The position numbers and the translations under genes were made by a program. From a virus, in IMG/VR virus record IMGVR_UViG_3300030430_004661, positions 10,512-74,511 of that record: 64,000 bases of DNA. One strand, 5' to 3'. The notes below the pieces were generated by a model that had not been told where the DNA came from, searched no databases, and saw only the letters and a program-made list of their open reading frames with translations. Numbering within the stretch: position 1 is the first letter of the stretch; each line of letters begins with the position of its first letter. Positions 184-29,530 of this stretch are shown in pieces.

Positions 184-186
184 AAA

Positions 187-597: not shown

Positions 598-604
598 AAA
601 AGCT

Positions 605-1182: not shown

Positions 1183-1200
1183 CATATTAGGACTAATCTG

Positions 1201-1236
1201 CCTCGTTTCTCTATTTATAGTGAACGAGGTTTTTTT
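1201..1236 (+). terminator. Hairpin plus U-tract (intrinsic terminator-like) overlapping a CTATTTAT motif and the RBS of the next gene
   Basis: CCTCGTT (1201-1207) pairs with AACGAGG (1223-1229), followed by seven T (1230-1236). Confidence 0.6.
1211..1218 (+). promoter_or_regulatory. CTATTTAT motif, candidate phage late promoter
   Basis: Same octamer found in four intergenic gaps upstream of late-type genes. Confidence 0.55.
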
Positions 1237-1239
1237 ATT

Positions 1240-4587: not shown

Positions 4588-5911
4588 AAAAAATTACGTG
4601 ATCGATACGTCGGTCTTTTTATCTGATTCTCGTTGTATATACAAGTTCGGAAATGCAGACTTATTCATTGCCTATAAAGTTCTAGAAGAAATTGATAAAC
4701 ACAAGAAGCGACAGGACTCTGTTGGTTTTCATGCACGTCAAACAATCAAGATCTTAGATGAACTTCGTGCAAAAGGGTCTCTTGCAACTGGCGTAAGACT
4801 TGAAAAAGGTAAGGGAGTGTTCAAAGTTGAAGAAGGACAGATAACTCTACCAGACGGACTTTCTATGAAAGTACCAGATCATCAAATATTGGCAACTGCT
4901 CTATACGTCAAAGAGTCCAATCCTAGACGAAAGACAATTGTTGTGTCGCGTGACATAAACATGAGAGTTATAGCTGATGCAATTGGCATTGAAGCAGAGG
5001 AATACCAAACAGTCAAAGCAGTTGAAAGCACTGACAAGATCTATACAGGCTATCAAGAGATTGTTGTTGACGACGAACTGGTTGAACAATTTTACAACGA
5101 CGAAGAAATACGACTCGACGAAGAGTTGTTAAAAACACAAAAAGTCAAGCTCTATGCAAACCAGTTTGTTATGTTAATTTCTTCCTCTAATCCGAAGAAA
5201 ACTGCACTTGCAAGGTACATAGATATGGTACACCCCCTTGACAAGATTAGAGATCGAAAACATGAGACATCTTGGGGAATTTTACCAAGAAACAAGGAAC
5301 AAACGTTTGCGTTTGATCTGTTGTTTGACGACACAATTCCATTTGTCTCTTTGATTGGTCGAGCAGGCTCTGGAAAAACTCTCATGGCAATCGCTGCTGG
5401 GATGGAGCAAACACTAGGAATGCATGGTAATAAGTACAGAAAGCTCGTAGTGTCAAGACCCGTACAACCCATGGGAAAAGATATTGGCTTCTTACCCGGT
5501 GACCTAAAAGAAAAAATGATGCCATGGTTGGCACCGATCCAAGATAACCTTGAAATGATAATAGGACAGGATAAAGTCGTATTTAAGCAGTTTTTAGAAC
5601 AAGGAAAGATCGAGATAGAGGCCCTTACCTATATTCGTGGTAGATCGATTAACAACGCCTTTATGATCATTGACGAGGCACAAAACCTCACAGCACATGA
5701 AGTTAAAACAATCATCACTAGAGTTGGTGAAAACACAAAGGTTGTTCTAACCGGCGACATTGAACAGATAGACAATATCTATACAAATGAAACCTCAAAC
5801 GGGCTCACTTATGCCGTTGAAAAGTTCAAAGAACACGACCTCGCCGGACATGTTACCTTTATGAAAGGTGAAAGGTCGCGAATCGCTACCTTGGCATCAA
5901 AGATCCTCTAA
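4580..5911 (+). CDS. phoH: PIN domain-PhoH ATPase fusion (PhoH2/YlaK type)
   Basis: N-terminal PIN (YVIDTSVFL, EEID, DHQIL, SRDINMR); Walker A GRAGSGKT; GFLPGDLKEKM, YIRGRS, IIDEAQN, GDIEQID. Confidence 0.93.
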   Translation: MAKKNYVIDTSVFLSDSRCIYKFGNADLFIAYKVLEEIDKHKKRQDSVGFHARQTIKILDELRAKGSLATGVRLEKGKGVFKVEEGQITLPDGLSMKVPDHQILATALYVKESNPRRKTIVVSRDINMRVIADAIGIEAEEYQTVKAVESTDKIYTGYQEIVVDDELVEQFYNDEEIRLDEELLKTQKVKLYANQFVMLISSSNPKKTALARYIDMVHPLDKIRDRKHETSWGILPRNKEQTFAFDLLFDDTIPFVSLIGRAGSGKTLMAIAAGMEQTLGMHGNKYRKLVVSRPVQPMGKDIGFLPGDLKEKMMPWLAPIQDNLEMIIGQDKVVFKQFLEQGKIEIEALTYIRGRSINNAFMIIDEAQNLTAHEVKTIITRVGENTKVVLTGDIEQIDNIYTNETSNGLTYAVEKFKEHDLAGHVTFMKGERSRIATLASKIL

Positions 5912-5936
5912 ATGAAATTTTAGAATATATTTATAC

Positions 5937-5965
5937 TTGACAACCGATTGGTTGTGTGTTATATT
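5937..5965 (+). promoter_or_regulatory. Sigma70-type promoter with extended -10
   Basis: TTGACA-17bp-TATATT with TGn; GGAG RBS before ATG 5989. Confidence 0.8.
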
Positions 5966-5988
5966 ACTAATATAACGCTGGAGACATT

Positions 5989-6660
5989 ATGAAGTGGATT
6001 TCAAATTCAATTAACGAATCACAAATCTTAAAGGATCATTACACATTGCATAGTATAGATATAATAGTAAAAGATACATTACCTGACAACGTCGATATAG
6101 ACTTTGTCATAAAATATATCACTACCAGAATACCAAAGTTTTTGATAACTGGGGTTGATATTATATATGTTGGACAATTTGATCATCTTATTGAGAAGGG
6201 TGTGAACGCCTTGTATGAGGACGGAGCAGTATATATAACAAATGATCAAGATGACGAAATGGATATGATTGATGATATAGTGCATGAGCTAGCACATGCT
6301 GTCGAGGTCAATTATTTTGATGTTATCTATGGTGATGGCACTTTAGAAGCAGAATTTTTAAGAAAGCGTAATCAATTACATGACATATTGAAATTAAGCA
6401 ATTTAAAGCCACCTCCGCAACTTTTAATTAATGTGTCGTTTGATCAAGTTATCGATGATTATCTGTACAAAGAAGTTGGGTACACAGCCCTTTGGAATTA
6501 CGTTGTAGGAATATTTCCTTCACCTTACGCAGCGACAAGCTTAAGAGAATATTTTGCTCGTGGCTTTGAAGAATTTTTTATTGGAAACAGAAAAAAGTTG
6601 ACATATTTTAATAGTGTGTTATATTCTAAGTTACAAGATCTTGTAGAATTGGAGGAATAA
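5989..6660 (+). CDS. Putative zinc metallopeptidase-like protein
   Basis: HELAH (HExxH) plus downstream YAATSLREYFARGFE, a third-ligand-type motif of zincin/gluzincin-like folds. Confidence 0.6.
   Translation: MKWISNSINESQILKDHYTLHSIDIIVKDTLPDNVDIDFVIKYITTRIPKFLITGVDIIYVGQFDHLIEKGVNALYEDGAVYITNDQDDEMDMIDDIVHELAHAVEVNYFDVIYGDGTLEAEFLRKRNQLHDILKLSNLKPPPQLLINVSFDQVIDDYLYKEVGYTALWNYVVGIFPSPYAATSLREYFARGFEEFFIGNRKKLTYFNSVLYSKLQDLVELEE
6598..6625 (+). promoter_or_regulatory. Sigma70-type promoter inside the upstream CDS
   Basis: TTGACA-16bp-TATATT with the same GTGTTATA context as the other promoters; GGAGG RBS before 6660. Confidence 0.6.
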
Positions 6661-7436
6661 TGCATATATCTTTTTCAGAACTTAAAATGTGGGCAGAGTG
6701 TCCATGGAAGCACCGGCTTGTCTATATTGATAAAATAAAGAAGTTTGTCGGAAATGAATTTACAGCCTTTGGATCAGCGCTTCACACTCTTTGTGAGCAT
6801 GCGATTGTTGATAAGATCCAAGACGATGAGTATGATGAATTTTTCGAACACAGCTTTGAAAAAGAAATCGCAAAACTACTCGTACGAGGAGCTGAGTTTG
6901 ATCAAAAACTCGTTGATGACATGCTCGATCAAGCAAAAATCCTGTCACCACAAATCATACCAGAGGTTGTAAAACACTTTGATAATTATGAAGTAGTCTC
7001 CGTAGAAGAAATGTTATACGAAGAGATTAAAGACTTTCAGACAGATCATAAGTTCAAAGGCTATATAGACCTAGTTCTCAAAACACCAGACGGTAAATAT
7101 CACATTATTGATTGGAAAACATGCTCTTGGGGTTGGGATGCTAAAAAGAAGTCTGACAAGCTCATAACATACCAATTGACACTGTATAAAAAGTTTTTCT
7201 GTCAAAAACATGATATAGATCCATCGCTTGTTGAAACTCATTTTGCACTACTAAAAAGAACTGCCAAGAAAAATAACGTTGAGATATTTCGTGTGACATC
7301 AGGACCTAGAAAAACAACAAATGCAGTTGATTTATTAACAAGAGCAGTTAAATCAATAAAAAGTGGCCTTAAAATAAAAAATAGAAACTCTTGCACATTC
7401 TGTGAATTTAAGAACACAACTGACTGTCCAAGATAA
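6660..7436 (+). CDS. PD-(D/E)XK (Cas4/RecB-like) exonuclease with probable Fe-S cluster
   Basis: ISFSEL..WAECP, FGSALH, GYIDLV...IIDWKT, YQLTLY, C-terminal CTFC(x7)C. Confidence 0.88.
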   Translation: MHISFSELKMWAECPWKHRLVYIDKIKKFVGNEFTAFGSALHTLCEHAIVDKIQDDEYDEFFEHSFEKEIAKLLVRGAEFDQKLVDDMLDQAKILSPQIIPEVVKHFDNYEVVSVEEMLYEEIKDFQTDHKFKGYIDLVLKTPDGKYHIIDWKTCSWGWDAKKKSDKLITYQLTLYKKFFCQKHDIDPSLVETHFALLKRTAKKNNVEIFRVTSGPRKTTNAVDLLTRAVKSIKSGLKIKNRNSCTFCEFKNTTDCPR

Positions 7437-7460
7437 AATTAATTTTTTTTATTTTTTTTC

Positions 7461-7489
7461 TTGACAAAGTAATTTAATCGTGTTATAAT
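7461..7489 (+). promoter_or_regulatory. Consensus sigma70 promoter upstream of the glycosylation locus
   Basis: TTGACA-17bp-TATAAT with TGn and an AT-rich upstream tract. Confidence 0.88.
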
Positions 7490-7513
7490 ATATTAAACAA
7501 CACGAGGTACGAC

Positions 7514-8773
7514 TTGTCAAAGAAAAAAATATTAACACTATCTGATCATCCTCTCTCGCCGTCCGGTGTCGGAACCCAAACAAGATATATTTGTGAGGCT
7601 CTTCTTGATACCGGGCGGTATTCTATTATTAGTTTGGGAGGCGCGATCAAACATAAGGATTACAGACCAGTTCAGCTAGAACAATATGGTGATGACTGGA
7701 GGATAATCCCTATAGATGGATACGGCACTCAAGAAATGATCCGATCTATTTTAAAAACCGAAAAACCAGATGTCATTTGGTTCATGACCGATCCACGATT
7801 CTGGGGCTGGCTATGGGAGATTGAAAATGAAATTAGGCCACTTTGCCCAATGGTGTATTACCATGTATGGGACAACTACCCTTATCCTTTTTACAACAGG
7901 AATGCTTATTTGTCTAACGACCACATTGTCACTATTTCTAAAGTTACTGACGATATAGTAAGAAATGTAGCACCAGAAGTAAAATGTACATATTTACCAC
8001 ATGCAGTAGATTTAAACTTCTTTAAACCGATGACCGATGAAGAAATTAAATCAATTAGAGATACAACGTTACCAGAACAAGATCGTGATAAAGTAATTTT
8101 CTTCTGGAACAATAGAAATGCACGTCGAAAACAATCTGGTACGCTCATATGGTGGTTCAAAGAGTGGTTAGATAAAAAAGATTTGCACGACAAAGCACAG
8201 CTCATAATGCACACTGAACCTAAAGACCCTCATGGACAGGACCTAGAGCACATAATTAATCATCTTGGGTTGGACCAACGCCAAGTCCTCCTATCAACTC
8301 AGAAAGTACCACCTGAGCATCTAGCATCAATGTATAATTTTGTTGATTGTACAATTAATGTTTCAGATGCTGAGGGATTTGGTTTGGCCACTCTTGAATC
8401 GCTATCCTGCGGCACGCCTATTATCGCCACGATGACAGGAGGTCTTCAGGAGCAAATCACAAACGGTTCTGATTGGTACGGCGTTGGTCTCTTCCCTACT
8501 TCAAAATCAGTCATTGGATCTCAAGATGTTCCGTATATCTATGAAGATAGAATAGATAAAGCGCAGTTTCATTCTGCACTGACCAAGATCTATTCCATGG
8601 GTCATGCAGCCCGAAGAGAAATGGGATTGCAAGGTAGAGATCATGTGATGAAAAACTACAATTTTATCGACTTCAAATCTAAGTGGATCGATCTTATGGA
8701 CAGCGTGCTAGAAAGTGGATCTCATGAAACACGAACAGGATATAACGGAATCAGATTTAAGGAGGTCGCATGA
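7514..8773 (+). CDS. Glycosyltransferase, GT-B/GT4 family
   Basis: SGVGTQ N-terminal motif, NRNARRK, EGFGLATLESLSCGTPII (EX7E); TTG start with GAGG RBS. Confidence 0.9.
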   Translation: MSKKKILTLSDHPLSPSGVGTQTRYICEALLDTGRYSIISLGGAIKHKDYRPVQLEQYGDDWRIIPIDGYGTQEMIRSILKTEKPDVIWFMTDPRFWGWLWEIENEIRPLCPMVYYHVWDNYPYPFYNRNAYLSNDHIVTISKVTDDIVRNVAPEVKCTYLPHAVDLNFFKPMTDEEIKSIRDTTLPEQDRDKVIFFWNNRNARRKQSGTLIWWFKEWLDKKDLHDKAQLIMHTEPKDPHGQDLEHIINHLGLDQRQVLLSTQKVPPEHLASMYNFVDCTINVSDAEGFGLATLESLSCGTPIIATMTGGLQEQITNGSDWYGVGLFPTSKSVIGSQDVPYIYEDRIDKAQFHSALTKIYSMGHAARREMGLQGRDHVMKNYNFIDFKSKWIDLMDSVLESGSHETRTGYNGIRFKEVA

Positions 8774-9990
8774 AAACCAACATATTTGTAAAAGGCCCTG
8801 TATTGTCACAAAGTGGCTATGGCGAACAAGCTCGCTTTGCATTACGTGCATTGCGAAGCAGAGAAGATCTATTTGATATATACATACTACCTATCAACTG
8901 GGGAAAAACAGGCTGGATATGGGAAAATAGTGAATTTAGATCTTGGATGGATGAAAGAATAGCAAAAACACAAATTGCAATAAATAACAAATCTCTAAAA
9001 GCAGACGTATCGTTACAAATAACTATACCAAATGAATTTGAAAAAATATGCCCGGTAAACATTGGGTATACCGCTGGTATAGAAGCAACCAAATGCTCAC
9101 CGCAATGGTTACCTAAAGGTAACGAGATGGACAAAATTATTGTTGTTTCTAGCCATGCTAAAAACAGTTATAAAAATACAGTAGCAGAGGCAATAAACAA
9201 TGACACTGGTGAAAAGTTTGAGTACAAGCTGAACACAGATATTAAAGTTGTTGGAGAATGCACACCAAGACACGAACCAGAAGCAATCGAAGGTTTTGAG
9301 TTGGATTATGACAAGAATTTTCTGATGGTATCCCAGCTCGGACCACGAAAAAACCTTGAAAACTCAATATGTTGGTTTGTAGAAGAGTTTATCGATAAAA
9401 AAGTCGGATTGGTATTGAAGACTAATTTCAAGAACAATTCAATATCAGACTTTAGCACGATCTCAAATCACCTCTCTACTTTACTAGAGAAATATAAAGA
9501 TAGAAAATGTAAGGTCTACTTGCTTCACGGAGATCTCAAACCATCACAGATGACTTGGCTATACCAGCATAAAAATATTAACGCTCTTATTAATGCATCT
9601 CACGGTGAAGGTTTTGGCTTGCCATTGTTTGAAGCAGCAAGAGAAGGTATGCCCGTTGTTACGCTTGGCTGGTCTGGACAGTTAGACTTTTTACACCATG
9701 ATGGCGATGACTATTTCCAATCAGTTGATTACACCTTACAGCCAATCCAACCACAAGCAGTGTGGCCGGGAGTTTTAGAAAAAGAGGCTATGTGGGCATT
9801 TGCCGATCAAGGCAGCTACAAGATGACCTTAAGAAAAACACTTAGAGACTATAGAAAAGTTAAACAAAAAGCACAGAAGTTAAAGACTATCATTGATCAA
9901 AAATTTAGCGAAGAAAAACTATACGCTGATTTCATAGATGCCTTACAGATTGCACAACCTGAAGAAGAAACACAGGTGGTCATACTGTAA
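8770..9990 (+). CDS. Glycosyltransferase, GT-B/GT4 family
   Basis: SGYGEQAR, PRKN, HGEGFGLPLFEAA. Confidence 0.9.
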   Translation: MKTNIFVKGPVLSQSGYGEQARFALRALRSREDLFDIYILPINWGKTGWIWENSEFRSWMDERIAKTQIAINNKSLKADVSLQITIPNEFEKICPVNIGYTAGIEATKCSPQWLPKGNEMDKIIVVSSHAKNSYKNTVAEAINNDTGEKFEYKLNTDIKVVGECTPRHEPEAIEGFELDYDKNFLMVSQLGPRKNLENSICWFVEEFIDKKVGLVLKTNFKNNSISDFSTISNHLSTLLEKYKDRKCKVYLLHGDLKPSQMTWLYQHKNINALINASHGEGFGLPLFEAAREGMPVVTLGWSGQLDFLHHDGDDYFQSVDYTLQPIQPQAVWPGVLEKEAMWAFADQGSYKMTLRKTLRDYRKVKQKAQKLKTIIDQKFSEEKLYADFIDALQIAQPEEETQVVIL

Positions 9991-11960
9991 TGAAAGTTAT
10001 TTTTTCTAGTCAATTCAGAGACAGTAGTGGTTATGCATCCGCAGCAAGATCTTATCTAAAGTCAATAGACACAGTTATAGAAAACTATGATTATGACTTT
10101 AAGATACTATCAATTTCTGTGGAAGACCACAGTGCTGTTTCTGATTACTATGAACAATTAATTTCAAAGTACGAGATAGATTTAGATTCAATTGATGAGT
10201 ATATCAAAGAAGATTATCTACTCATATGGCACCAACCAGCAGGAATGGTGATGTATGGAGACTCTAACAAAAGTAATGATCCTGAATGGATAGCGTTCAA
10301 AAAGCTGTTGGATAACTCAACCAAGAATGTGAACATGACAGTTTGGGAGTCTGATAAGGTTCCAGATATGTGGTCTGCAATACACAAGAAGTATAAAACA
10401 ACCTCAGTCATAGTCCCTTGTCAACAAAACAAAGACATTTTTGAAACATCAGGTATCTCCGCTCACCTGCTACCTCACGTGATTGAAGATCCAATGAAAA
10501 ATCCCAAAGAGATAAATGGGTTTCCTATAAATCTAGACGACATGTTTACTGTGTTTTCTATGTCACAGTGGATTAATCGAAAGGGTTATGATGCTTTAGT
10601 AAAGGCATTCTCTATGGAGTTTGACAACGTTCCAGACGCTATCATGATAATAAAAACTTACGTGACAGCAATGAACACAAAGCAGTTTCCGTTCAACAAG
10701 CAAGCAGAACATGTGCAAAGTGAGATCGTCGCAGTCAAGAGGACAGTTTTAAAACACGGTCGACCATCTAATGCTAAGATAGCAGCGATCTGCAATGTTC
10801 TTCCATATGAAAACATATCGTGGCTATATTCAAAGTCTGATGTCTTTGCGTTAGCGACAAGAGGTGAGGGCTTCGGTTTGACCATATCGGAAGCTATCAT
10901 GCATGAGAAACCTGTTGTGGTGTCATCTGCTGGCGGACATTTGGATTATATAAATCCAGATGACGCCTTTTTGTTTAATGGCTACAAACATCCATACATA
11001 GGGGATCCAACTTATGATTACGATATGAATTGGTTTGAGCCCGACATACTTGATATAAGAAAAAAATTAAGAACATGTTATAATCTATGGAAGTCGAATA
11101 GAGAAAAACTTGCTCAAATGGGCAAAAATCTGAAGCAACATATCTTGTCTAATGGATACGACTATGAATCAATTGGAAACAAGTTTTTTTCCATAATATC
11201 AAAAGAAATCAACTATAGAAGCGATAATTTGAAAGATATGATAAGGTCTTTTTCATCTGATAGAAAAAAGTTAGACCTTTTGAAAGACAAATACAAAGAT
11301 CAAGACTGTTACATCTTAACATGTGGCCCATCTCTTAGCAACTATTCTGAGGAGTTTTTAAACGAAGCACTTTCAGATAAACTAGTGTTCGCAGTTAAGC
11401 AAGCATACAATCAGGCACCAGATATTGTTGATTTTCACTTTTTTAACTCAAACAACTTTGAAGTATATAACTATAAGGAAGATAGGCCCATAGTGTTTGC
11501 AAGCTCGGCTGAGAGTGAGATAGCCATGATCTATCACATTTGGTCCAACAACCAAGAGTATGACATTTTTAATTTCATACCAGATGATAGAGACATGTCC
11601 AAGTCGATTTGCAAAAGTTTGAACTTTGAAAAGCATACATATGAAAACACAATCGAAAGACCATGGGGGCCCGGTATTATGACTGAAATGGTGTTCTACT
11701 TAGCGGTACACATGGGCGTAAAGAACATATACACCATAGGTTGGGACTTAGAAAAGCCCGGATCCACAAAGTCAAACCATTTTTACAAGGATAGATCAGT
11801 AATAAGACCTGCTGATGATATGCCTAAAGATGAAATAAATAATAACATAAACATGTCGAAGCACTTAAACGAGTGGTTAAAAACAAAAGGAATTAATTTA
11901 TATGTAGCAAATGAAGGGTCTTATGTACACAATTCAATACCTAGGAGAATATTAAAATGA
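9990..11960 (+). CDS. Bifunctional GT4 plus sialyltransferase-like (Maf/DUF115/GT42-type) protein
   Basis: SGYASAAR, RKGYD, RGEGFGLTISEA in the first ~405 aa; C-terminal YILTCGPSL...VFAVKQ...AVHMGVKNIYTIGWD. Confidence 0.8.
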   Translation: MKVIFSSQFRDSSGYASAARSYLKSIDTVIENYDYDFKILSISVEDHSAVSDYYEQLISKYEIDLDSIDEYIKEDYLLIWHQPAGMVMYGDSNKSNDPEWIAFKKLLDNSTKNVNMTVWESDKVPDMWSAIHKKYKTTSVIVPCQQNKDIFETSGISAHLLPHVIEDPMKNPKEINGFPINLDDMFTVFSMSQWINRKGYDALVKAFSMEFDNVPDAIMIIKTYVTAMNTKQFPFNKQAEHVQSEIVAVKRTVLKHGRPSNAKIAAICNVLPYENISWLYSKSDVFALATRGEGFGLTISEAIMHEKPVVVSSAGGHLDYINPDDAFLFNGYKHPYIGDPTYDYDMNWFEPDILDIRKKLRTCYNLWKSNREKLAQMGKNLKQHILSNGYDYESIGNKFFSIISKEINYRSDNLKDMIRSFSSDRKKLDLLKDKYKDQDCYILTCGPSLSNYSEEFLNEALSDKLVFAVKQAYNQAPDIVDFHFFNSNNFEVYNYKEDRPIVFASSAESEIAMIYHIWSNNQEYDIFNFIPDDRDMSKSICKSLNFEKHTYENTIERPWGPGIMTEMVFYLAVHMGVKNIYTIGWDLEKPGSTKSNHFYKDRSVIRPADDMPKDEINNNINMSKHLNEWLKTKGINLYVANEGSYVHNSIPRRILK

Positions 11961-12781
11961 AAACATACGTTATAGCGGAAATAGGAATAAACCATAATGG
12001 TTCGTTAGACATCGCCAAGAAGCTGATTGATGTAGCGGCTGTCTCAGGATGTGATGCAGTAAAGTTCCAGAAAAGAAATCCCGATGTCTGTGTACCTGAG
12101 CACCAAAAATCAGTCATGCGTGAAACTCCGTGGGGTACCATGACCTACTTGGACTATAAATATAAGATGGAGTTCGGCAAAGAAGAGTATGATGAGATCG
12201 ATAGATACTGTAAACAGAAGGGTATCGAATGGTCTGCTTCCCCATGGGATCTCGACAGCTTGAAGTTTTTGATGAATTATGATTTACCATGGCTTAAAAT
12301 ACCATCTGCCATGATAACCAACGAGGAATTAATGACTGCGTGTGCTGCAACTGGTAAAAAAGTTATCTTTTCCACTGGTATGTCAACTTATGACGAGATA
12401 GACCAAGCAGTAGAATGGCTCAATGGCTCTGATACTTTAATGCTTCACTGTAATTCTAGTTACCCGGCGCCGTTAGAAGATTTAAATCTAAAATGCATAC
12501 AGACTCTCAAGAAAAGATATGGCTGTGAAGTAGGCTATAGTGGTCATGAGTTTAGGCTTGGCACATCTGTAGCAGCAATATATTTAGGTGCAACTTGTAT
12601 CGAGAGACATATAACTTTAGATAGAACAATGTGGGGTTCTGACCACCTATCTTCAGTCGAACCTCAAGGGTTGATCAAGATGGTGAGGGGTATTAGAGAG
12701 CTGGAAGTAGCACTTGGAGACGGTGTGAAAAGGGTTACAAGCGGCGAGCTTGCACCAAGAAAGAAACTTAGAGGTTACTAG
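11957..12781 (+). CDS. neuB: Nonulosonic acid synthase, NeuB family, lacking the C-terminal SAF domain
   Basis: IAEIGINHNG, AVKFQKR, LKIPS, STGMS, HCNSSYP, GYSGHE, ERHITL, GSDH. Confidence 0.95.
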   Translation: MKTYVIAEIGINHNGSLDIAKKLIDVAAVSGCDAVKFQKRNPDVCVPEHQKSVMRETPWGTMTYLDYKYKMEFGKEEYDEIDRYCKQKGIEWSASPWDLDSLKFLMNYDLPWLKIPSAMITNEELMTACAATGKKVIFSTGMSTYDEIDQAVEWLNGSDTLMLHCNSSYPAPLEDLNLKCIQTLKKRYGCEVGYSGHEFRLGTSVAAIYLGATCIERHITLDRTMWGSDHLSSVEPQGLIKMVRGIRELEVALGDGVKRVTSGELAPRKKLRGY

Positions 12782-13620
12782 TGTTCCAAGAACAATGGAT
12801 CTGCCCAGAGAGACTGGGTGGATCAAAAGCAATAGATATGTATAATCTATATTTGAACAATAGAAGAGACCAGCTTCCATATGCTGATCTAAAGTATTCT
12901 CATGTTGTTGACAAAGTTCACGAAGAAGGATATGCGATAGTTCAATCCTGTGTCGATGTAGATCTCATAAATGAGATATTGACGAACACGGAAAGCATTT
13001 TCTTAGACCCAAGACTTTTAAAAACAAATAATGAAAAATATAAAACTGTTAGGCACCCATTTATTGACTGCCCACAAATATTGAATCTTGCCCTATCAGA
13101 GACAATTTTCAATGTTGTTAGTCAATTTTATGGGTGCGTTCCAGCTTTAACGGGCGGAAAAATACACCGATCCTACGCCTTCACAGGACAAAAAACAGGT
13201 ACACATTTATATCATATAGATAAAAACAGTCTATGGTTTATAAAAGCTTTTATCTACTTGAATGATGTAGGTATAGATGGCGGGCCATTTACATATGTTA
13301 AGGGAAGCCACAAAGATAGATTTGCTGGTTGGAGAGACAATTATAGATATAGTGACGAACAAATCACAACTTATTACGGTAAAGATCGCATAAAGCACCT
13401 AACTGCTTCAGTTGGCGATGTAATATTTGCAAACACTGTAGGGATGCATAAGGCACTTACTATGGATAAAGGACACAGAACAATGGTGACTTTGAATTTT
13501 TGTGTTCACCCAGAAGACTGGTCACCAGAGTCTAAGTTTATGTTTATGCACAAAAATGATTACGAAAGGATCAGTGCTAACAAAACAAGGCTTTTTGATT
13601 ATATAAGGAAAACATCATGA
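12781..13620 (+). CDS. PhyH-like Fe(II)/2-oxoglutarate dioxygenase
   Basis: EEGYAIV, HID (HxD), IYLNDV...GGPFTYVKGSH, GDVIF...MHK...R. Confidence 0.8.
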   Translation: MFQEQWICPERLGGSKAIDMYNLYLNNRRDQLPYADLKYSHVVDKVHEEGYAIVQSCVDVDLINEILTNTESIFLDPRLLKTNNEKYKTVRHPFIDCPQILNLALSETIFNVVSQFYGCVPALTGGKIHRSYAFTGQKTGTHLYHIDKNSLWFIKAFIYLNDVGIDGGPFTYVKGSHKDRFAGWRDNYRYSDEQITTYYGKDRIKHLTASVGDVIFANTVGMHKALTMDKGHRTMVTLNFCVHPEDWSPESKFMFMHKNDYERISANKTRLFDYIRKTS

Positions 13621-14414
13621 ACAAATATAGAAAAAACATAGATCACGGTGGGTGGTTTAGTTTTAACGCAACGCAAGAAGAATGGAAGTCAAACTACGCT
13701 GAAAAAATGTTAGATTACTTTTTTACCTCGTCGATTATAGAGAGGAGCTTTGGCGGATACACAATAACAGATGAACTCTTGATTACAAATAACCTAAACT
13801 TTTCTGGTGTCAAAGAGAGGAGTGTTCTTGTCATAGGAGCAGGTCCATCTTCATCCTTGTTAACGCAAGAGTTACTTGATTCCTATGACTATGTTTTTAC
13901 ATGCAATCACTTTTTTAAAAACGATTTTTTGAATGGCACCAAAGTCAACCTAGTCTTGATTGGCGACGAAGTCAGTCTGAGATCACCACACTTTCTAAAA
14001 TATATCGAGAAACACTCTCCAATTATAGGATTTGAACACTCCGCCAGAAGAACCATGCTTGAAGTCTTAGATTTTAAAAGATCTTATCCTAGAAGCTTTA
14101 TTTATCTGACTAGGTACTTTTCAAGGTTGGGATATGTTGCTAGAGCATGTGTTCTTGCAAGGTGTATGGGTGCCTCAAAAGTTGATTTTGTGGGTATGGA
14201 TGGTTTCAAGAAGAGGGTCCATCTTTTTCAAAAAGGCAAAAAACCACCATCCTTTAACGATCCAGACAAGTTTAGAAAACAAGCAAAAATATTTTATGAA
14301 TATATGTTGAATGATTTACGTATAACTAAGGATAATTTTAATAACCTTGGAGAAAATCACGAATCCAGCATATACACCGGAATCATGAATGAGGTAAAAA
14401 ATGAAACAAATTGA
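13617..14414 (+). CDS. Sialyltransferase-like protein (CstII/GT42- or Maf-like)
   Basis: VLVIGAGPSS...VFTCNHFF...ARCMGASKVDFVGMDG matches the GxGPS / CN.F / G..I.L.G.D pattern; flanked by neuB and neuA. Confidence 0.7.
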   Translation: MNKYRKNIDHGGWFSFNATQEEWKSNYAEKMLDYFFTSSIIERSFGGYTITDELLITNNLNFSGVKERSVLVIGAGPSSSLLTQELLDSYDYVFTCNHFFKNDFLNGTKVNLVLIGDEVSLRSPHFLKYIEKHSPIIGFEHSARRTMLEVLDFKRSYPRSFIYLTRYFSRLGYVARACVLARCMGASKVDFVGMDGFKKRVHLFQKGKKPPSFNDPDKFRKQAKIFYEYMLNDLRITKDNFNNLGENHESSIYTGIMNEVKNETN

Positions 14415-15075
14415 AGAGATAGCGGTAATAATACAAGCGAGACTTAACTCACAAAGAATACCTAAAAAAATGATCAAGCCATTTTCAGGGACAACTTTAA
14501 CAGATATATTTCTAGAGAAAGTTAAAAAATGTAGAAGTTTTCCAATGTCTAATTTTTATTTGTCTGTCTACGAAGATGAGTTAGTTGATATTGGGATCAA
14601 ACACGATGTCAACATATTCAAAAGGTCAAAGAAATCCGCCTTTTCGGAAGGTACCCCGATGACTCTTATGTATGAGTGGCACAACAAACTACCTTTTAAA
14701 TACTGTGTTCTAATAAATGCCTGTGTTCCTTTTTTAAAGCCTGAGACTATAGATGATTTCATTAGGCTATACTGTCTGTCAGACCATGATGGCATGTTTG
14801 CAGTTATGGAAAAGAAGAATTATTTTTGGAACCAAAACGCAGATCTTCTAACACCATTAACCGAAGATGTTATGAACACAAAAACAGTTCAGAAAACTTA
14901 CGAAGCAGCACATTGCCTTTATGCTGGTAAGATGAGTAGCATAAAAGACGGTGTGTGGATGGGTGACTTCATGAAAAATGAAGTAAAACTTTTCCCAATT
15001 CAGGAACGTGAGGCATTTGATATCGATCACCCATGGCAGTTTGATCTGTGTGAAAAACTATGGGAGTCTAAATGA
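14401..15075 (+). CDS. neuA: CMP-nonulosonic acid synthetase (acylneuraminate cytidylyltransferase)
   Basis: IIQARLNSQRIPKKMIKPF, NACVPF, FDIDHPWQF. Confidence 0.88.
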   Translation: MKQIEEIAVIIQARLNSQRIPKKMIKPFSGTTLTDIFLEKVKKCRSFPMSNFYLSVYEDELVDIGIKHDVNIFKRSKKSAFSEGTPMTLMYEWHNKLPFKYCVLINACVPFLKPETIDDFIRLYCLSDHDGMFAVMEKKNYFWNQNADLLTPLTEDVMNTKTVQKTYEAAHCLYAGKMSSIKDGVWMGDFMKNEVKLFPIQEREAFDIDHPWQFDLCEKLWESK

Positions 15076-15839
15076 TATTTTATTCTGAGCATTACGAAAA
15101 ATGTAAACATGATCAACCTAGCCTGTACGACTATGTGTTTGAGATGAACCCTTTTATCCTTGATAAAGGAGACGTTAGAACATTGGCAAACACAGTTGAT
15201 GGCATGATATCATATAACAATGGGTGTCTAGAAGACCAATGGTCGATAAAACTTGAAAACATATCGTTTATACCACAGCTGGAGTCAATATGCAAACAAT
15301 TAGCAATGCAGATAGAAAGTAGGTACTTTGGATCTTACTGTAAATTTGAGTTTATACATTGCTATAGAAACAAAACAACAGCCACAAAAGAGTCTTCATG
15401 GAAATGGCACTATGATGATTGTCCTAGAGAATTTATGAAAGTTGGACTTTACCTGAATGATGTTAATACCGACAACGGATGTATGCAAATTTTAAACTCT
15501 ATGGACGGACCCAAGGAAGTTAAGTCCTTCAGAACACACCCAAACGCAGTAAAAGGTGATCCTCCACCAGTTTATCCAAAATCAAGAATACCGGATGCAG
15601 AGATAAGCAGACTTTTATCGAATGGGTATAGAGAACACAACGTCGTAGGTAAATCAGGAACAAACTTTCTTTTCACACCAAACATAATACACAGAGCAAC
15701 GATTCCAAAAGAAGGTGTCACCCCAAGAGATGTCATAATATTTTTTGTAAGACCGAGTCTGAAGAAGATAACAAACTATACTAGTGTAGCAAAATATTTT
15801 AGATCTGGTAAAAACGTGAAGAGGTATGAATTAGATTGA
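15072..15839 (+). CDS. PhyH-like Fe(II)/2-oxoglutarate dioxygenase
   Basis: WHYD (HxD), LYLNDVNTDNGC, IIHRA...RD. Confidence 0.75.
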   Translation: MIFYSEHYEKCKHDQPSLYDYVFEMNPFILDKGDVRTLANTVDGMISYNNGCLEDQWSIKLENISFIPQLESICKQLAMQIESRYFGSYCKFEFIHCYRNKTTATKESSWKWHYDDCPREFMKVGLYLNDVNTDNGCMQILNSMDGPKEVKSFRTHPNAVKGDPPPVYPKSRIPDAEISRLLSNGYREHNVVGKSGTNFLFTPNIIHRATIPKEGVTPRDVIIFFVRPSLKKITNYTSVAKYFRSGKNVKRYELD

Positions 15840-16696
15840 TGTTTAGAAGTAGAAAAATAAATAAAAATCAATGGATCGACACCAAAACAAACACTGTTTT
15901 TGAAACTGGTTTGATTAAAGGTAGGCACGGTAAGAAATCAAGTTTTCTGGACACCCCAGATAGTTTTCTTGGTGGACACTATGGAGAGTCGTATTACTTA
16001 GATTTCTACGACAGGATTCAACACGATGTGGATGATTACACAACCAGCAACGAGGTTATCTATAAACGCCATGATAATAAACTAGCGGGTAAGAAGGTTC
16101 TGATTGTTGGTGGCGGACCTTCGTCTAATGACCTCAAATGGCAACAACACTACGACTACGTGATTACTAGTAATAATTATTACAAAAAGTTTCCTGATAA
16201 TAAACCATACATAATAAACTTTACACCTTACATGGATCTAAGCGATTCAAAGTTGCTGTCTTTTTTAGATTCTGGAGATTTTTATATTGGCTTTGAAGCG
16301 GATGCTTTTTTAAAAAACCATGAGATCTCTATGATCCATACGTTTTGGCCAAAGTATAGAGATAGAATAATTCTGTTCCACACCAGATATTCATCAGCAA
16401 TTGGTGTCTCAACCCGTCAAGCAGTCTTTGCGATATTGATGGGAGCTGATGAAGTTCACCTATGTGGCATGGACCTATTCAAAGACAAGGACAGTGTTAG
16501 ACACTCCTTTGAGGATAACAAGGGTCTTCCACGATGGCGTCTCGCAGGGGGAGAAACCCTTCAACAACAATTAGTAGTTTCTTTTTGGGAATACGTTAAG
16601 CAGATCGGCGCTACAAACGACTGTAGAGTTATCAACCTAGCGAGACACTTCGATTACAATTGCCTAGGTCAACCATCAATAGGAGAACTATCATGA
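15836..16696 (+). CDS. Sialyltransferase-like protein (CstII/GT42- or Maf-like), paralog of 13617..14414
   Basis: VLIVGGGPSS...VITSNNYY...TRYSS.IG...AILMGADEVHLCGMD. Confidence 0.7.
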   Translation: MMFRSRKINKNQWIDTKTNTVFETGLIKGRHGKKSSFLDTPDSFLGGHYGESYYLDFYDRIQHDVDDYTTSNEVIYKRHDNKLAGKKVLIVGGGPSSNDLKWQQHYDYVITSNNYYKKFPDNKPYIINFTPYMDLSDSKLLSFLDSGDFYIGFEADAFLKNHEISMIHTFWPKYRDRIILFHTRYSSAIGVSTRQAVFAILMGADEVHLCGMDLFKDKDSVRHSFEDNKGLPRWRLAGGETLQQQLVVSFWEYVKQIGATNDCRVINLARHFDYNCLGQPSIGELS

Positions 16697-17487
16697 AGAT
16701 AGCACTGTGTTACTCAGGTCAAATTGGTGCTTTTCATAAAGCATTACGCAGCCAAAGAGCTTCGTTTCTGACTAACGACATGGATATCTACGTTTACACT
16801 TCAGACGTAGTGTCACAGAAAAACAATACTATAGTTAACTTGCCGACTTCATCGGACGTACACGAATATCTGATAGCCGGAAAAGGTTGGAGAAAAAACA
16901 CCAACACTTATGGTATAGTGTATAAGATCCCATCAGATTACATCGTGAAATCACTAAAACCAATAGAAAGACAAATAGTTCACATGAAAGTCCAAAAAGA
17001 GGATCTATATGAAACACTGAATGATTGGGACATGTCAAAATGGAAATGGCTAAGAAAAAGACAGCTCTGGAAAATGCACCAGTGCAATGAGATGGTAAAC
17101 AACAGTGGTAATGACTATGACATAGTGGTTAGATCGAGATTTGAGTTTGGTCCAAATGTAAAGATAGATATACAGAAAATTGTATCAAGCACCGATAACT
17201 TGGATAATAAAATTTTTATGTTTGGTGGTTGGAACTGTGTTCCTCCAATGGTTTTTATGGATGAATTTATTTGTGATGGGTTTGCCTTTGGAAAACCTGA
17301 AGTTATGAATAAGTTCACATCTCTCTATTTAAATGAAGATCCATACCCGTATGATCCGAAATATAAAGAGTGTTGGGAAAAGTTTGGTGATAACGTTGAA
17401 TATCAATTAAAAACTCACCTTGATAAACACAACATTGAGATTGTGTATATTGGTAATAAAAGAAACATGTATCATTTATGGAGATAA
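16693..17487 (+). CDS. Putative glycosyltransferase-like protein
   Basis: MKIALCYSGQ...YDIVVRSRFE...DGFAFG pattern typical of viral glycan-locus proteins; AGGAG RBS and ATGA overlap. Confidence 0.55.
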   Translation: MKIALCYSGQIGAFHKALRSQRASFLTNDMDIYVYTSDVVSQKNNTIVNLPTSSDVHEYLIAGKGWRKNTNTYGIVYKIPSDYIVKSLKPIERQIVHMKVQKEDLYETLNDWDMSKWKWLRKRQLWKMHQCNEMVNNSGNDYDIVVRSRFEFGPNVKIDIQKIVSSTDNLDNKIFMFGGWNCVPPMVFMDEFICDGFAFGKPEVMNKFTSLYLNEDPYPYDPKYKECWEKFGDNVEYQLKTHLDKHNIEIVYIGNKRNMYHLWR

Positions 17488-17488
17488 A

Positions 17489-18115
17489 GTGAAAAAAGTA
17501 TTTATTGACTGTGGTAGTTACGACGGCTGTAGCGTGAGAAAATTCTCTGATCTGTACGACAAAAAAGCAGATTATCAGTATCACTGTTTTGAGGGCAATC
17601 CGCTATTGGCCAACTATCACCCTGTGAACGAAAGGTGTGTGTTTCACAACACCATAGTACTAGATACCGAAGATGAGGTTACATTTTATGTACATTCCAC
17701 TACAGGAGGGAGCACAATCAGTCAACAGAAAAACCAGAGGTATAAAAACAAAGATGAATCAAAGTATGGCGATACGGAGGAGATAGTTCTAAGACCAATA
17801 AGACTATCAAGCTATATAAGCGACAACTTTAGCCCTGATGATAATATAATTTTAAAAATGGATATTGAAGGTGCTGAATATTGCGTCCTTAGAGACCTTA
17901 TCAAATGCGACGTATTGTGGTACATTGATAAGATCTATATCGAATGGCACATAAATGATAGAACAGAAGAGCCTCAACCCGAAGAGTTTATATCAGAGTT
18001 CGTTGAAATATGTGATGAAAACGATATATGTTTGGATACTTCTTGGGACTCGATGCATGAGCCGTACATGAAAGAAGAAAGAAATTCTGAATACAAAAAA
18101 AAGAGGAAAAAATGA
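17489..18115 (+). CDS. FkbM-family SAM-dependent methyltransferase
   Basis: VFIDCGSYDG, CFEGNP, ILKMDIEGAEY, IEWH; GTG start after GGAG. Confidence 0.88.
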   Translation: MKKVFIDCGSYDGCSVRKFSDLYDKKADYQYHCFEGNPLLANYHPVNERCVFHNTIVLDTEDEVTFYVHSTTGGSTISQQKNQRYKNKDESKYGDTEEIVLRPIRLSSYISDNFSPDDNIILKMDIEGAEYCVLRDLIKCDVLWYIDKIYIEWHINDRTEEPQPEEFISEFVEICDENDICLDTSWDSMHEPYMKEERNSEYKKKRKK

Positions 18116-18420
18116 TAATTTATGTAGACATAGATGAAACAATATGTGTTTCACCACCAAACCGAGATTATTCACAAGCAGTTCCAATAGCAAACCACAT
18201 CAGTAAAATCAATCAACTTTATGATTCTGGTAACACGATTGTATATTGGACTGCTAGAGGCACTGGATCTGGTATTGACTGGAGAGAAGTGACAGAAAGA
18301 CAGTTTGAAACTTGGGGGGTAAAGTATCATGATCTTAAGTTTGGCAAACCAATATATGACTTGTTTGTTGATGATAAAAATATAAATTGTGAGAGGTTTT
18401 TTCATAATGAAAATATATGA
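18112..18420 (+). CDS. Small capless HAD-family phosphatase
   Basis: YVDIDETIC (DxD), WTARG, KP..DLFVDDK. Confidence 0.85.
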   Translation: MIIYVDIDETICVSPPNRDYSQAVPIANHISKINQLYDSGNTIVYWTARGTGSGIDWREVTERQFETWGVKYHDLKFGKPIYDLFVDDKNINCERFFHNENI

Positions 18421-19147
18421 TAAAATAAACCAAGAACGTAAAGATATAATAAACAAAACAAAGCATACGATTAGCGATGTTCCTAGGGCGCAAAAAGAAG
18501 TAGCTGAGTTGCTTCCTGATCTTTTTGAGAAGAAAAGGTTTTATAAAATGCATCCTAGGCCAAATGATCACCCACAATCCAGAGAGTATCAGTACTATGA
18601 ATATTGTATTAGTGCTGTTGAGATTGATGGCTTGTGGTTAGAATTTGGTGTCTACAAAGGTGCTAGTAGTAAGTATATTAGCAAGATAAAGAACGAATTG
18701 CACCCCGAATCAGATAAGGGATTTCATGGGTTTGATTCATTTGAAGGTTTACCAGAAGATTGGACTGGAAATGGATCTCCAAAGGGTAAGTTTAAAACAA
18801 AAGTTCCTTCCGTTCCCGGAGTGACCTTTCACAAAGGATGGTTTAGTGACACCATACCAAAATTTTTAACATCATACAAAGGTCAATGTGCATTTATACA
18901 CATCGATTGTGACATATATTCATCAACAGTGGATATTCTAGAAAACTTGTCACCAAGAATAGTACCCGGAACTGTTATTCTTTTTGATGAGCTTACTGGA
19001 TATGACGCTTGGAAAGATCATGAATATAAAGCGTTTATTGAATTTGTTGAAAAATATGATGTTGAATATGAATGGCTAGCATATGTGGCAAATGCAGGCC
19101 AAGCAGCATGTAAAATAACTAAAATAGGAGTACATAATGAATTATAA
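18407..19147 (+). CDS. TylF/MycF-like sugar O-methyltransferase
   Basis: LEFGVYKG, GFDSFEGLP, KGWFSDT, IHIDCDIYSST, ILFDE. Confidence 0.85.
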   Translation: MKIYDKINQERKDIINKTKHTISDVPRAQKEVAELLPDLFEKKRFYKMHPRPNDHPQSREYQYYEYCISAVEIDGLWLEFGVYKGASSKYISKIKNELHPESDKGFHGFDSFEGLPEDWTGNGSPKGKFKTKVPSVPGVTFHKGWFSDTIPKFLTSYKGQCAFIHIDCDIYSSTVDILENLSPRIVPGTVILFDELTGYDAWKDHEYKAFIEFVEKYDVEYEWLAYVANAGQAACKITKIGVHNEL

Positions 19148-23135: not shown

Positions 23136-26100
23136 ATGTCTGAATTTAAAGATTTACAGGTCGATATATGTGAAATAGATGAAGCATTAGCACCCAAAGA
23201 CGACAGACCGGAGTGTCCGGACATTGTCATAGAGATACCTAGACCCGAAATAGACTTACCCTCTTTCGATCCAGATATTGACTTTTCTGATATCACAAGG
23301 CTGGATTTCAGCTTTGGCGATCTAAAAAAGTTGAGGAAACTCAAGCTGCTATTTAAAAAATTTTCACAATTGCAAGTTATACTTAAATCTAGTAGTGGTA
23401 TATCATTTATACAAGACGTACCAGATCCCGGCTTTGAAACAGGAAGAAGAAAATTTTACTTAAAAAAGTTTGAACTGTTAATTGATAAGTTTGAAATATT
23501 GATTGAAGATTTTTTTGATCGTGAAGGTATAGATTTCGATCCAGATATAATTGAAAAAATTAGCTTCGAGTTTGATAAATTCGACCCACTCAATCCTTTT
23601 AAGGTTGAAAGGTTTACCATCCTAGACAGGGCTGGAAAGTTCTTTGATGTGCCAAAGATTGATTTTGATCCAGTTCTGCAAGACCCCACGCTTATGAAAT
23701 ACTTTATCGATATAGATTCTATATTTGATAGGCTGACTGTAGATACGTCTTGGATCGATATCATGCTAGAGATAACATACCCAAGGATACAGATTGATTA
23801 TGGATCTTTTGATGACCTAGACATAGACTTTGGAGACTTAGACTTTAGCCTGAAGTTTAGAGATCTTGCATTAGGTAGCTTTAAGTTTCCTGATATAATG
23901 ATGTATTCCTTGGAAATACCAAAAATAAAATCAATAGATTTCAATAAAACAAAGTACAGCTTGCTAAGGCAAGGTTTGTCTGTGTTGCCACCTGACCTAG
24001 ATTTCTCACAGTTACCAGACATTAACCTGAAACAAATAGAAAACATATTTGATGAATTCAATATTCCAAAGTTAGATCGTGGAGCACTTATGGAACTCTA
24101 CAATAGGTTTGGACCAATTGACAAATTTAAGGCTCCAAAAGTTCTTAAGCCATTTGGTGATTTTGACTTCGAAAGATCTCAGCTTTTGGACTTTCTAACA
24201 CCTTGTAAATGGAAAGAGGTTCTTGAGGAGACACTAAAGAGTAAACTATCTGATAAAACTCTGGAACAAGCAACCAGAATAATAATAAGAACAGCCCTGC
24301 TTTCAGCGTCTCCTCTCGTGCTACGTAAAATATACGGTGAGTTAGCACAGGACGTAACACAAGAAATCGAACAGGAAATCAGATCAGAACTTCAAATAGA
24401 TTCATTTGCTTACCCATGGGATGTAATACAGGAAGTTGAATTAGAAAGATCTATTCTAGATAGGCAAAAGATATTGGACCAACTTGAAGAAAGTTTAGAT
24501 GAAGAAATAGACGCACAAGTCAAACGCTTGATGGTTGAAAAGATAATAGAAAAATCAAACATAGACAAGCTTTCTGAGTTTTTCGATATGATTCCCGGTG
24601 CCGACATATACAAGCTAGCAGTGTTATCGGACGAAGTCCCGTTTACACCCAATATAAATGCAGGGATAGAAAAGATTGTCGGTGTTGGGGGAGTTGGCTT
24701 ATGTGATGATGGAAGGTTTATAAAAAAGGGCCTACCACAACTTCCAAAAATGAAAGAGCTTAGTTTCAAATTTTTGCTGGATGTGTTAATTAAAGAATTT
24801 AAAAAGCTACTTATCAAACTTCTGATAAACGTTTTACTATCTATAGTTATAAAGTTTATAGACAAAGCAGTTTCATCATTTCCGCCACTACCAGATTTGC
24901 CACAGCTCCCAGACGTCCCAGACATATCAGACATCCCACCTATAAGTAATTTTCCTGATTTGCCAAATCTGCCGCCATCAGGGAGATTAGATCCTTCTAA
25001 TTTAATGAGAGACTTGAATGATGTTAATTTTGGTACAGCATTATCAGATGTGTTCTTTGGACCACCAGAATTGGGAGACACCGCAGCAGGAAAATTTTTA
25101 GAGATAAGTGGTGTTCCAGCCAGATCTAGAGATAGATTGATAAAAGCAATATCCAACACCTTAACAGCAAAAGAATTAAAAGCCGCCATGGCAGCGAGTC
25201 CGGAAAACCAAAATGGTGCTGCAATTGCTGCTGTCTATACTGCCATTAGAGGCACTGGATTTGAAGTTCCCGGTGTTCTTTCAAGCCCTGAAGATGTTCA
25301 AGCAATGTTTGCAAATATAAATTCATATCTAACACCAGATCAAAAAGCCAGAATATTAAACAGTATTACACCTGAAGACGACATGCCCATTAACAAATCA
25401 ATATGTCTTACAAAAGAAGAAAGGTGCATGTGGAATGATCAAAGGCTTGATGCATTTAAAGATCTTGGTTTTAATGATGACGAGGCAAACGATTTCTTAG
25501 ATAGACTTAATGATAAGTCTGATCAAGACCTTGCAGATGTGGTTGATGCCTTATTTAACGCTCCTGATAATATTTTAGGTGACGCTCTGGACGCAGCACT
25601 AGACAACGCAGTATCTGGTAAAAATGATATTGGTGAACCTCAAAGGCTACAGAAAGCAGATGATTATGACGAAGACAACCTAGGAGACTTGGATGACAAA
25701 GATATCTGTTTCGACGTATTTTTTGAACTGACAGGTCAAACTGGTAACAATAGTATAACAATACCAACTGATATGAAAAACTTATTTAAAAATATGAACA
25801 GGGATGTCTTTAGAATGTTAAATTTTGCCTTCTCAAATGATCTCATAGGTAGACGAAATTCATTTTTTGAAAACGTGTTAGCAGACAGGAGAGGCACAAA
25901 GCTTACAGCCGGCTTATTTGACCATGAAACTAGGGTACGTCTTAGATATCCATTCCCAAATGCCGCTGATACCGAGGAACAACACGCAGAAAAATTCGAT
26001 GGTGCTGGTAAGATCCTAAAAAGAGTTATGGAGAAAACCCGGATTATGGACAAAGGTGAAGAAGACCCCGCCCAAGGCGACCCTAGTAACCTCTTTCCCT

Positions 26101-29509: not shown

Positions 29510-29530
29510 TTTGTGCTTGAGGAACTTTTA

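Follow-up and report, generated by a model that had tools for sequence, protein, structure and literature searches.

We found that a contig of an uncultured large marine phage carries a set of genes that probably form, in full, a self-contained route to a nonulosonic acid activated with cytidine monophosphate (CMP). The window studied here is a stretch of 64,000 nucleotides (positions 10,512 to 74,511 of the IMG/VR virus record IMGVR_UViG_3300030430_004661), which is part of a 74.5-kb contig with a CheckV completeness of about 41%. The large open reading frames (ORFs) of the window are all on the + strand, and those between 7514 and 19147 constitute a sugar island of 13 genes (11.6 kb) that is translationally coupled, with stop and start codons overlapping from gene to gene. 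The island includes a short NeuB-family synthase, a small HAD phosphatase, and a divergent cytidylyltransferase. We observed the domain identities, the intact catalytic motifs, the clade to which NeuB belongs, and a linkage between NeuB and a phosphatase that is conserved both in phages and in cells. On sequence grounds, a route through a 9-phosphate is quite likely, and the sugar is, by some preference, 2-keto-3-deoxynononic acid (KDN) or a derivative of it.

We infer the substrates, the order of the steps, and the product of the route as follows. NeuB, which lacks the SAF domain, would join phosphoenolpyruvate to a hexose 6-phosphate of the host to give a nonulosonate 9-phosphate. The favored substrate would be mannose 6-phosphate (Man-6-P), yielding KDN 9-phosphate (KDN-9-P), and the alternative would be N-acetylmannosamine 6-phosphate (ManNAc-6-P), yielding the 9-phosphate of N-acetylneuraminic acid (Neu5Ac). 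The HAD protein, of the AfhF family and 102 residues long, would take off the terminal 9-phosphate, and the cytidylyltransferase would make the CMP-sugar. Maf-like and GT4 transferases would attach the sugar to a target, and PhyH dioxygenases and two methyltransferases would tailor it. A previous examination of the letters without database searches (the sequence-only reading) had pointed to KDN or a 9-phosphate route rather than to Neu5Ac, pseudaminic acid (Pse), or legionaminic acid (Leg). The 9-phosphate part of this proposal gained support from the NeuB clade and the HAD linkage; the sequences do not separate KDN from Neu5Ac 9-phosphate. We favor KDN because Man-6-P belongs to central metabolism while none of the phage genes supplies ManNAc-6-P, because the nearest cellular homologs come from KDN producers, and because the CMP-transferase finds its best match among solved structures in the KDN-specific PpNeuA. 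The type of pathway is known; its setting in a phage and its phosphatase are new.

The NeuB gene (11957..12781), predicted to encode a nonulosonate-9-phosphate synthase, has a product of 274 residues, of which residues 23-258 match positions 1-241 of the PF03102 model (E = 4e-79; 265.9 bits against a cut-off of 22.1 bits). The SAF domain (PF08666) was looked for in this protein and gave no match. As the next ORF overlaps the NeuB stop codon and codes for a PhyH dioxygenase, there is no separate SAF piece downstream, and as more than 120 close relatives have 274-275 residues, the protein is naturally short rather than truncated. The sequence-only reading was thus right about the length and the missing SAF domain, and both motifs that it had named, QKRNPDVCVP and RETPWGTMTYLDY, were found in the protein. 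Among 44 family members, K36, K114, H197, E216, and H218 were invariant and E8 almost so; we take these residues to map onto the metal-binding and catalytic positions of Neisseria meningitidis NeuB. The best NCBIfam match was TIGR03569, at 272.9 bits, below the equivalog cut-off of 399.65 bits, and the score against the PseI model TIGR03586 was also below the cut-off (196.8 versus 340.25 bits). The SAF part of these two models has no counterpart in the phage protein.

A scan of 1.84 billion protein representatives for NeuB yielded mostly SAF-less proteins of 270-300 residues. The top match (P0124, 59% identity) contained CTP_transf_3, HAD, and NeuB domains in one protein, and another (P0134) was a fusion of HAD and NeuB, with a HAD domain that matched KdsC phosphatases and the KDN-9-P phosphatase of Bacteroides thetaiotaomicron (PDB 3e81, 1.6e-33). 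For cellular homologs, we examined the 80 best matches in 185,579 species genomes, obtained by a scan built on a 10-sequence alignment. They were 56-62% identical to the phage protein and came nearly all from Actinomycetota, chiefly Streptomyces, Nonomuraea, and Streptosporangium, in agreement with the kinship to short actinobacterial NeuBs that the sequence-only reading had suggested. A row of CMP-transferase, KdsC-type HAD, and NeuB was present in 76 of the 80 loci, the first two immediately upstream of NeuB; in Streptomyces filamentosus, the CMP-transferase and the HAD form one fused gene that is followed by a SAF-less NeuB of 297 residues (confirmed with Pfam). The ties of NeuB homologs to a phosphatase, in the fusions and in the 76 loci, are a signature of the 9-phosphate route.

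Streptomyces operons of the SCO4880-SCO4881 type presumably make a KDN polymer. The NeuBs of such actinobacterial NeuA(-HAD)-NeuB operons are the closest to the phage NeuB, lack SAF, and share its loop and active-site motifs, whereas their phosphatase is of the KdsC type and fused to NeuA. Homologs of the phage Maf-like, PhyH, and methyltransferase proteins were not found in the actinobacterial NeuB loci (tblastn, E 1e-4). The main decoration of Streptomyces walls is reported to be teichulosonic acid that contains KDN (PMC11481543), and S. albus and Brevibacterium are listed as producers of KDN only (PMC12934254).

We constructed a maximum-likelihood tree of 117 sequences. The references were plasmid genes named by the PGAP annotation and chosen with diagnostic neighbors, namely three pseI genes, on which the tree was rooted, and three NeuB genes in LegB/LegC/NeuC contexts. 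The phage and actinobacterial NeuBs formed one clade (98% support in the Shimodaira-Hasegawa-like approximate likelihood ratio test, SH-aLRT). The NeuB genes with LegB/LegC/NeuC neighbors formed a group of their own outside this clade, and the branches that part the phage NeuB from pseI and from the Leg-context NeuBs had 98-100% support. In this phylogeny, a check that the sequence-only reading had proposed and for which PGAP-named genes here served as references, the phage protein grouped neither with PseI nor with the Leg-context NeuBs. A separate clade (97% support) was formed by P0192, P0210, P0255, and P0256, in which a SAF-bearing NeuB and a xylose-isomerase-like TIM barrel (AP_endonuc_2) are joined in one protein; a CBS domain is also present in two of the four.

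The clade is also marked by its motifs. Where Pse/Leg-type enzymes have FQT or IQTYT, G[YL]SDH, and LPGPDH, the members of the phage and actinobacterial clade have FQKR, GYSGH (G[YF]SGH), and MWGSD[HQ] ([MW]xG[ST]D[HQ]), and they share an extended R-x-TPWG-x-MTY loop. The NeuB of the window carries FQKR, GYSGH, and WGSDH. Bacterial NeuB, LegI, and PseI share with the phage protein the TIM-barrel fold of PF03102 and the conserved residues for metal binding and catalysis, but they have a C-terminal SAF domain and FQT and SDH motifs, act on sugars that are not phosphorylated, and are accompanied by NeuC or by Pse/Leg tailoring genes, whereas the phage NeuB has no SAF, has FQKR and SGH, and is without such genes. 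Human NANS has a pattern of FQK, GYSGHE, and WKGSDH. The KDN-9-P synthetase of Prymnesium parvum is strictly specific for Man-6-P (PMC6200933); it has about 312 residues, is SAF-less like the phage NeuB, and carries KFQKRNP, GFSGH, and TWKGTDHAASLEP (motifs FQKRNP, GFSGH, and WKGTDH). We had guessed that P0230 (312 residues) was an enzyme of the Prymnesium type, and it turned out not to be. The combination of FQKR, GYSGH, and WGSDH with the loss of SAF may be a marker for NeuB enzymes that use phosphosugars.

The gene at 18112..18420 is predicted to encode the nonulosonate-9-phosphate phosphatase. The HAD motifs of its 102-residue product (D6-x-D8, T47, K79, and D83/D88) were invariant in 26 homologs, and the AlphaFold model (pLDDT, the predicted local distance difference test score, of 84) was a bare Rossmann core; the four motifs and the model bear out the capless HAD phosphatase of the sequence-only reading. 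The best solved relative was AfhF of phage HY126 (PDB 9iqw; 4.4e-13 by sequence, and 36% identity with a TM score of 0.75 by Foldseek). AfhF is Mg-dependent and removes the terminal 5-phosphate of arabinose-1,5-bisphosphate en route to UDP-arabinose for DNA modification. KdsC and BT1713 chains were absent among the PDB sequence matches at E values up to 10, and Foldseek gave E values of 0.2-0.25 against the KdsC-type structures 4hgr and 4hgo. Sequence and model thus place the phage HAD outside the BT1713/KdsC family and inside the AfhF family, although it may work like BT1713 without belonging to that family. It looks like a non-orthologous replacement of a KdsC-type phosphatase. AfhF and the D-arabinose-1,5-bisphosphate 5-phosphatase gp51 of phage RB69 belong to the same phage-borne family of small capless HADs, and AfhF acts in a nucleotide-sugar pathway by taking off a primary phosphate at the end of the sugar, as is predicted for the HAD of the window. 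The partners differ, being NeuB and a CMP-transferase in the window and arabinose-5-phosphate isomerase and a kinase/uridylyltransferase for AfhF, and the predicted substrate in the window, the 9-phosphate of a nine-carbon keto acid, is unlike that of AfhF.

For the linkage of these genes in viruses, we used 51 viral loci with about 10 kb of flank on each side. The CMP-transferase was present in all 51 and the HAD in 31. In at least 22 loci, the HAD was the immediate neighbor of NeuB or of the CMP-transferase. In a single-virus genome of Kyanoviridae (NeuB 49% identical), the HAD starts 24 bases past NeuB; in a 484-kb huge phage, it is 3.3 kb from NeuB. The closest homolog of the HAD in a cultured phage was found in Synechococcus phage Bellamy (55% identity; region 5411-11341), where a class II aldolase lies on one side and a GHMP kinase, a nucleotidyltransferase, and two epimerase/dehydratases on the other; judging from these genes, the Bellamy cluster is a putative different nucleotide-sugar pathway.

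The predicted CMP-nonulosonate synthetase (14401..15075) is divergent, matching PF02348 (CTP_transf_3) at E = 8.4e-11 and 42.5 bits (cut-off, 22.6 bits). It aligned with actinobacterial NeuA with an hhalign probability of 95.7%, and its best solved match was PpNeuA, the CMP-KDN synthetase of P. parvum (9t4z, 6.5e-8). Arg196 of PpNeuA is the gatekeeper arginine of KDN-specific CMP-sialate synthetases (PMC12934254).

The three proteins together follow the logic of the CMP-KDN pathways of B. thetaiotaomicron (BT1714 synthase, BT1713 phosphatase, and CMP-KDN synthetase) and P. parvum (PMC6200933). In both the known pathway and the phage, a NeuB-family synthase predicted or known to act on a 6-phosphosugar, a capless HAD, and a CTP_transf_3 cytidylyltransferase make up the three steps, and no genes for precursors derived from UDP-GlcNAc (UDP-N-acetylglucosamine) are needed. 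The phage differs from these two organisms in that its phosphatase is of the AfhF family and not of the KdsC/BT1713 type, its cytidylyltransferase has diverged strongly (a Pfam score of 42 bits), and the genes are virus-encoded and set among transferase and tailoring genes.

The sequence-only reading had noted that the window has no NeuC, PseB/LegB, or aminotransferase gene. Profile searches of the whole 74.5-kb contig agreed, with no match to Epimerase_2 (NeuC), Polysacc_synt_2 (PseB/LegB), or the DegT aminotransferase. Since the contig is incomplete, the absence had to be checked in complete relatives, and we used five large relatives of 155-204 kb, two of which were rated 100% complete (one with terminal repeats) and one 94%. 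NeuC was found in none of the five and NanE in none above the cut-off, and all five have the HAD. SIS isomerase, sugar-1-phosphate nucleotidyltransferase, ThyA-like hydroxylase, and phosphomannose isomerase were not found in the relatives that are 94-100% complete. Precursor genes elsewhere in the genome, which the sequence-only reading had named as a point to be checked, were thus not found in complete relatives; PseB-like and DegT genes are sporadic, in one large relative each.

Several points weigh against a 9-phosphate route to KDN, and some of them favor other explanations. The references of the tree are PGAP-named genes and not the characterized synthases (BT1714, the enzyme of P. parvum, human NANS, NeuB of N. 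meningitidis, and NeuB1, PseI, and LegI of Campylobacter jejuni). The Prymnesium synthetase was compared by eye, from the codon-optimized gene in the supplement of the paper, and its overall similarity to the phage NeuB appears only moderate, about one third by that estimate. In 20 of the 51 full-flank loci, the distance between the HAD and NeuB exceeds 10 kb. Moreover, the same 9-phosphate logic could apply with ManNAc-6-P as the substrate, so that NeuB would make Neu5Ac 9-phosphate like the animal NANS, and the HAD and the CMP-transferase would turn this product into CMP-Neu5Ac. ManNAc-6-P would come from the host, which could form it from GlcNAc-6-P (N-acetylglucosamine 6-phosphate) by NanE, for instance. 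The clade signature cannot part users of Man-6-P from users of ManNAc-6-P, and human NANS is reported to take both. A putative ManNAc-6-P epimerase is encoded beside the NeuA-NeuB cluster of Streptomyces coelicolor, which makes a Neu5Ac-type substrate conceivable for the NeuB clade, and in a gapped profile-profile alignment the stretch of the CMP-transferase facing Arg196 is variable in the phage family, has Met/Lys in the window, and shows no clear counterpart of the arginine. However, NanE, NeuC, and a kinase were not found in the complete relatives, and the phage would thus have to draw ManNAc-6-P from the host, a source that may be missing in many marine bacteria; KDN polymers are reported from the organisms whose NeuB homologs are the closest; and the solved protein that best matches the CMP-transferase is KDN-specific. 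We consider a ManNAc-6-P substrate unlikely.

Another explanation, which we regard as quite improbable, is that NeuB takes a non-phosphorylated precursor of the host (ManNAc or a 2,4-diacetamido sugar of the Leg/Pse type) and completes a host nonulosonate pathway with which the HAD has nothing to do. The contig is only 41% complete, one of the five large relatives has a PseB-like short-chain dehydrogenase/reductase and a different one has DegT, the best NCBIfam match is TIGR03569, and a short NeuB of Azospirillum thermophilum adjoins LegB, LegC, and NeuC on the other strand. Against such a precursor, NeuB scores below both equivalog cut-offs and is separated from pseI and the Leg-context NeuBs by the well-supported branches described above, the proteins closest to it are joined to phosphatases by fusion or lie directly beside them, and the five large relatives all lack NeuC and all keep the HAD, which in viral loci often abuts NeuB. 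It is also conceivable that the HAD serves another pathway of the AfhF/GmhB type (sugar-1,omega-bisphosphate to sugar-1-phosphate), such as DNA hypermodification or heptose synthesis, and is in the island by chance. AfhF, the only characterized member of the family, acts on arabinose-1,5-bisphosphate for DNA arabinosylation, and the Bellamy homolog stands beside class II aldolase, GHMP kinase, and nucleotidyltransferase genes. The AfhF-type HAD family is present in about 390 phage records, mostly T4-like coliphages without NeuB, so its presence alone proves little; together with the putative other pathway in Bellamy, this distribution suggests that the family removes terminal phosphates from sugars in general and that the partner enzymes determine the substrate. 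In the complete relatives, which are without SIS isomerase, sugar-1-phosphate nucleotidyltransferase, and a ThyA-like enzyme, NeuB would be the sole plausible supplier of a substrate, NeuB and the CMP-transferase are the only nucleotide-sugar partners present, and the HAD adjoins them in the loci counted above and in the Kyanoviridae virus. A heptose or arabinose role was set aside on the absence of the isomerase and the nucleotidyltransferase, and an unrelated HAD pathway is very unlikely.

The other genes of the island may serve in the transfer and tailoring of the sugar. The first island gene (7514..8773) encodes a GT4 glycosyltransferase (Pfam Glycos_transf_1, 4.9e-12; GT4-conflict, 1.7e-9), and of 80 related viral loci, 50 have a homolog on the upstream side of NeuB. 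The second GT4-like glycosyltransferase gene (8770..9990; GT4-conflict, 1.5e-6, 27.9 bits with a cut-off of 26) is likewise kept in 50 of the 80. In the product of 9990..11960, a GT4 domain (Glycos_transf_1, residues 271-329) is fused to a MptE/Maf-like (DUF115) domain (residues 426-588, E = 3e-6; 27.6 bits, under the cut-off of 34.6 bits). A Maf/MptE-like (DUF115) candidate nonulosonate transferase is encoded at 13617..14414 (MptE-like, 1.1e-4, and CST-I, 5.5e-3, both below the cut-off), with homologs in 70 of the 80 viral loci, mostly directly downstream of NeuB. Its paralog with 28% identity is the second Maf/MptE-like protein (15836..16696; MptE-like, 3e-4, under the cut-off). The island thus has three Maf-like and three GT4 transferases, one fusion being counted in both. 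A natural fusion of 941 residues (P0214) joins a short NeuB to a MptE/Maf-like domain (1.2e-29) and supports a functional link between the NeuB clade and Maf-type transferases.

Candidate tailoring enzymes are a PhyH-family Fe(II)/2-oxoglutarate dioxygenase (12781..13620; PhyH, 8.8e-8), a second, weak PhyH-like protein (15072..15839; PhyH, 3.6e-3, under the cut-off; homologs in 28 of the 80 viral loci), a FkbM-family methyltransferase (17420..18115; Methyltransf_21, 9.6e-12; TIGR01444, 4e-13), and, as the last island gene, a TylF-type O-methyltransferase (18389..19147; TylF, 3.8e-14; Methyltransf_24, 1.9e-12). A conserved protein with no Pfam match is encoded at 16660..17487 (phrog_13607, 5.5e-13; homologs in 18 of the 80). 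The tailoring set has a bacterial counterpart, as a plasmid of A. thermophilum (NZ_CP029359.1, 3998-7522) encodes in a row a short NeuB that is 52% identical, a HAD protein, a TylF O-methyltransferase, and a PhyH dioxygenase; this cassette is back to back with the LegB, LegC, and NeuC genes on the opposite strand. DNA is an unlikely target of the sugar because there is no base-hydroxylating enzyme, and it was set aside, genes like ThyA or dCMP-hydroxymethylase being absent from the complete relatives.

Virion genes lie downstream of the island, including a gene for a T4-type baseplate wedge protein (29513-31330), whose nearest cultured relatives are in Flavobacterium phage immuto and Microcystis phage Mel-JY01 (about 31% identity). 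It is flanked by giant ORFs at 23136-29102, 32753-43186, and 43188-48083 (1988, 3477, and 1631 residues), which presumably encode fiber or baseplate proteins and are possible targets of the glycosylation island. Just 5' of the island, a PhoH-like ATPase with an N-terminal PIN domain is encoded at 4565-5911 (PhoH, 5.9e-53; PIN_4, 7.3e-29), and a PD-(D/E)XK nuclease at 6660-7436 lies between this region and the island. The 223-residue protein of 5989-6660 matched PF07737 (anthrax lethal factor N/C-terminal domain) at E = 0.0026 and 17.9 bits, with a cut-off of 27.4 bits; it perhaps has a zincin-like fold, but the match is more likely noise. The 10.5 kb of the contig 5' of the window contained no sugar genes. 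Encoded there (contig 1-10600, with features at 1875-3875 and 5804-7039) are a 666-residue protein with a weak protein-kinase match, a 411-residue NUDIX protein, and an AhpC/TSA-like redoxin.

Relatives of the phage NeuB are on 219 IMG/VR contigs. Clustered at 80-90% identity, the proteins fall into more than 120 groups, and the Tara collection has records of several of these. Among 50,697 phage records, a megablast search with the island gave no near-identical record, and tblastn found NeuB in only three. A search of the literature for a phage KDN pathway found none, which, with the incomplete coverage of that search, is weak evidence of novelty.

In terms of enzyme evolution, our finding suggests that the KdsC-type KDN-9-P phosphatase of cells has been displaced here by a HAD of the AfhF type, which is otherwise known from the arabinosylation of DNA. 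We tentatively propose that an abundant lineage of marine T4-like phages may make methylated or hydroxylated KDN from the Man-6-P, phosphoenolpyruvate, and CTP (cytidine triphosphate) of the host by way of this recruited phosphatase, and that the Maf-like transferases may use the CMP-sugar to put a sialic-acid-like glycan on virion proteins as a coat or on the host surface, which would thereby be remodeled. If the route works as predicted, only central metabolites of the host would be needed for an activated sialic-acid-like sugar, and the trait could spread whether or not the host makes nonulosonates. Given how common the genes are, adsorption, grazing, or the evasion of defense in the sea could be affected by KDN-type glycans carried by phage particles or by infected cells.

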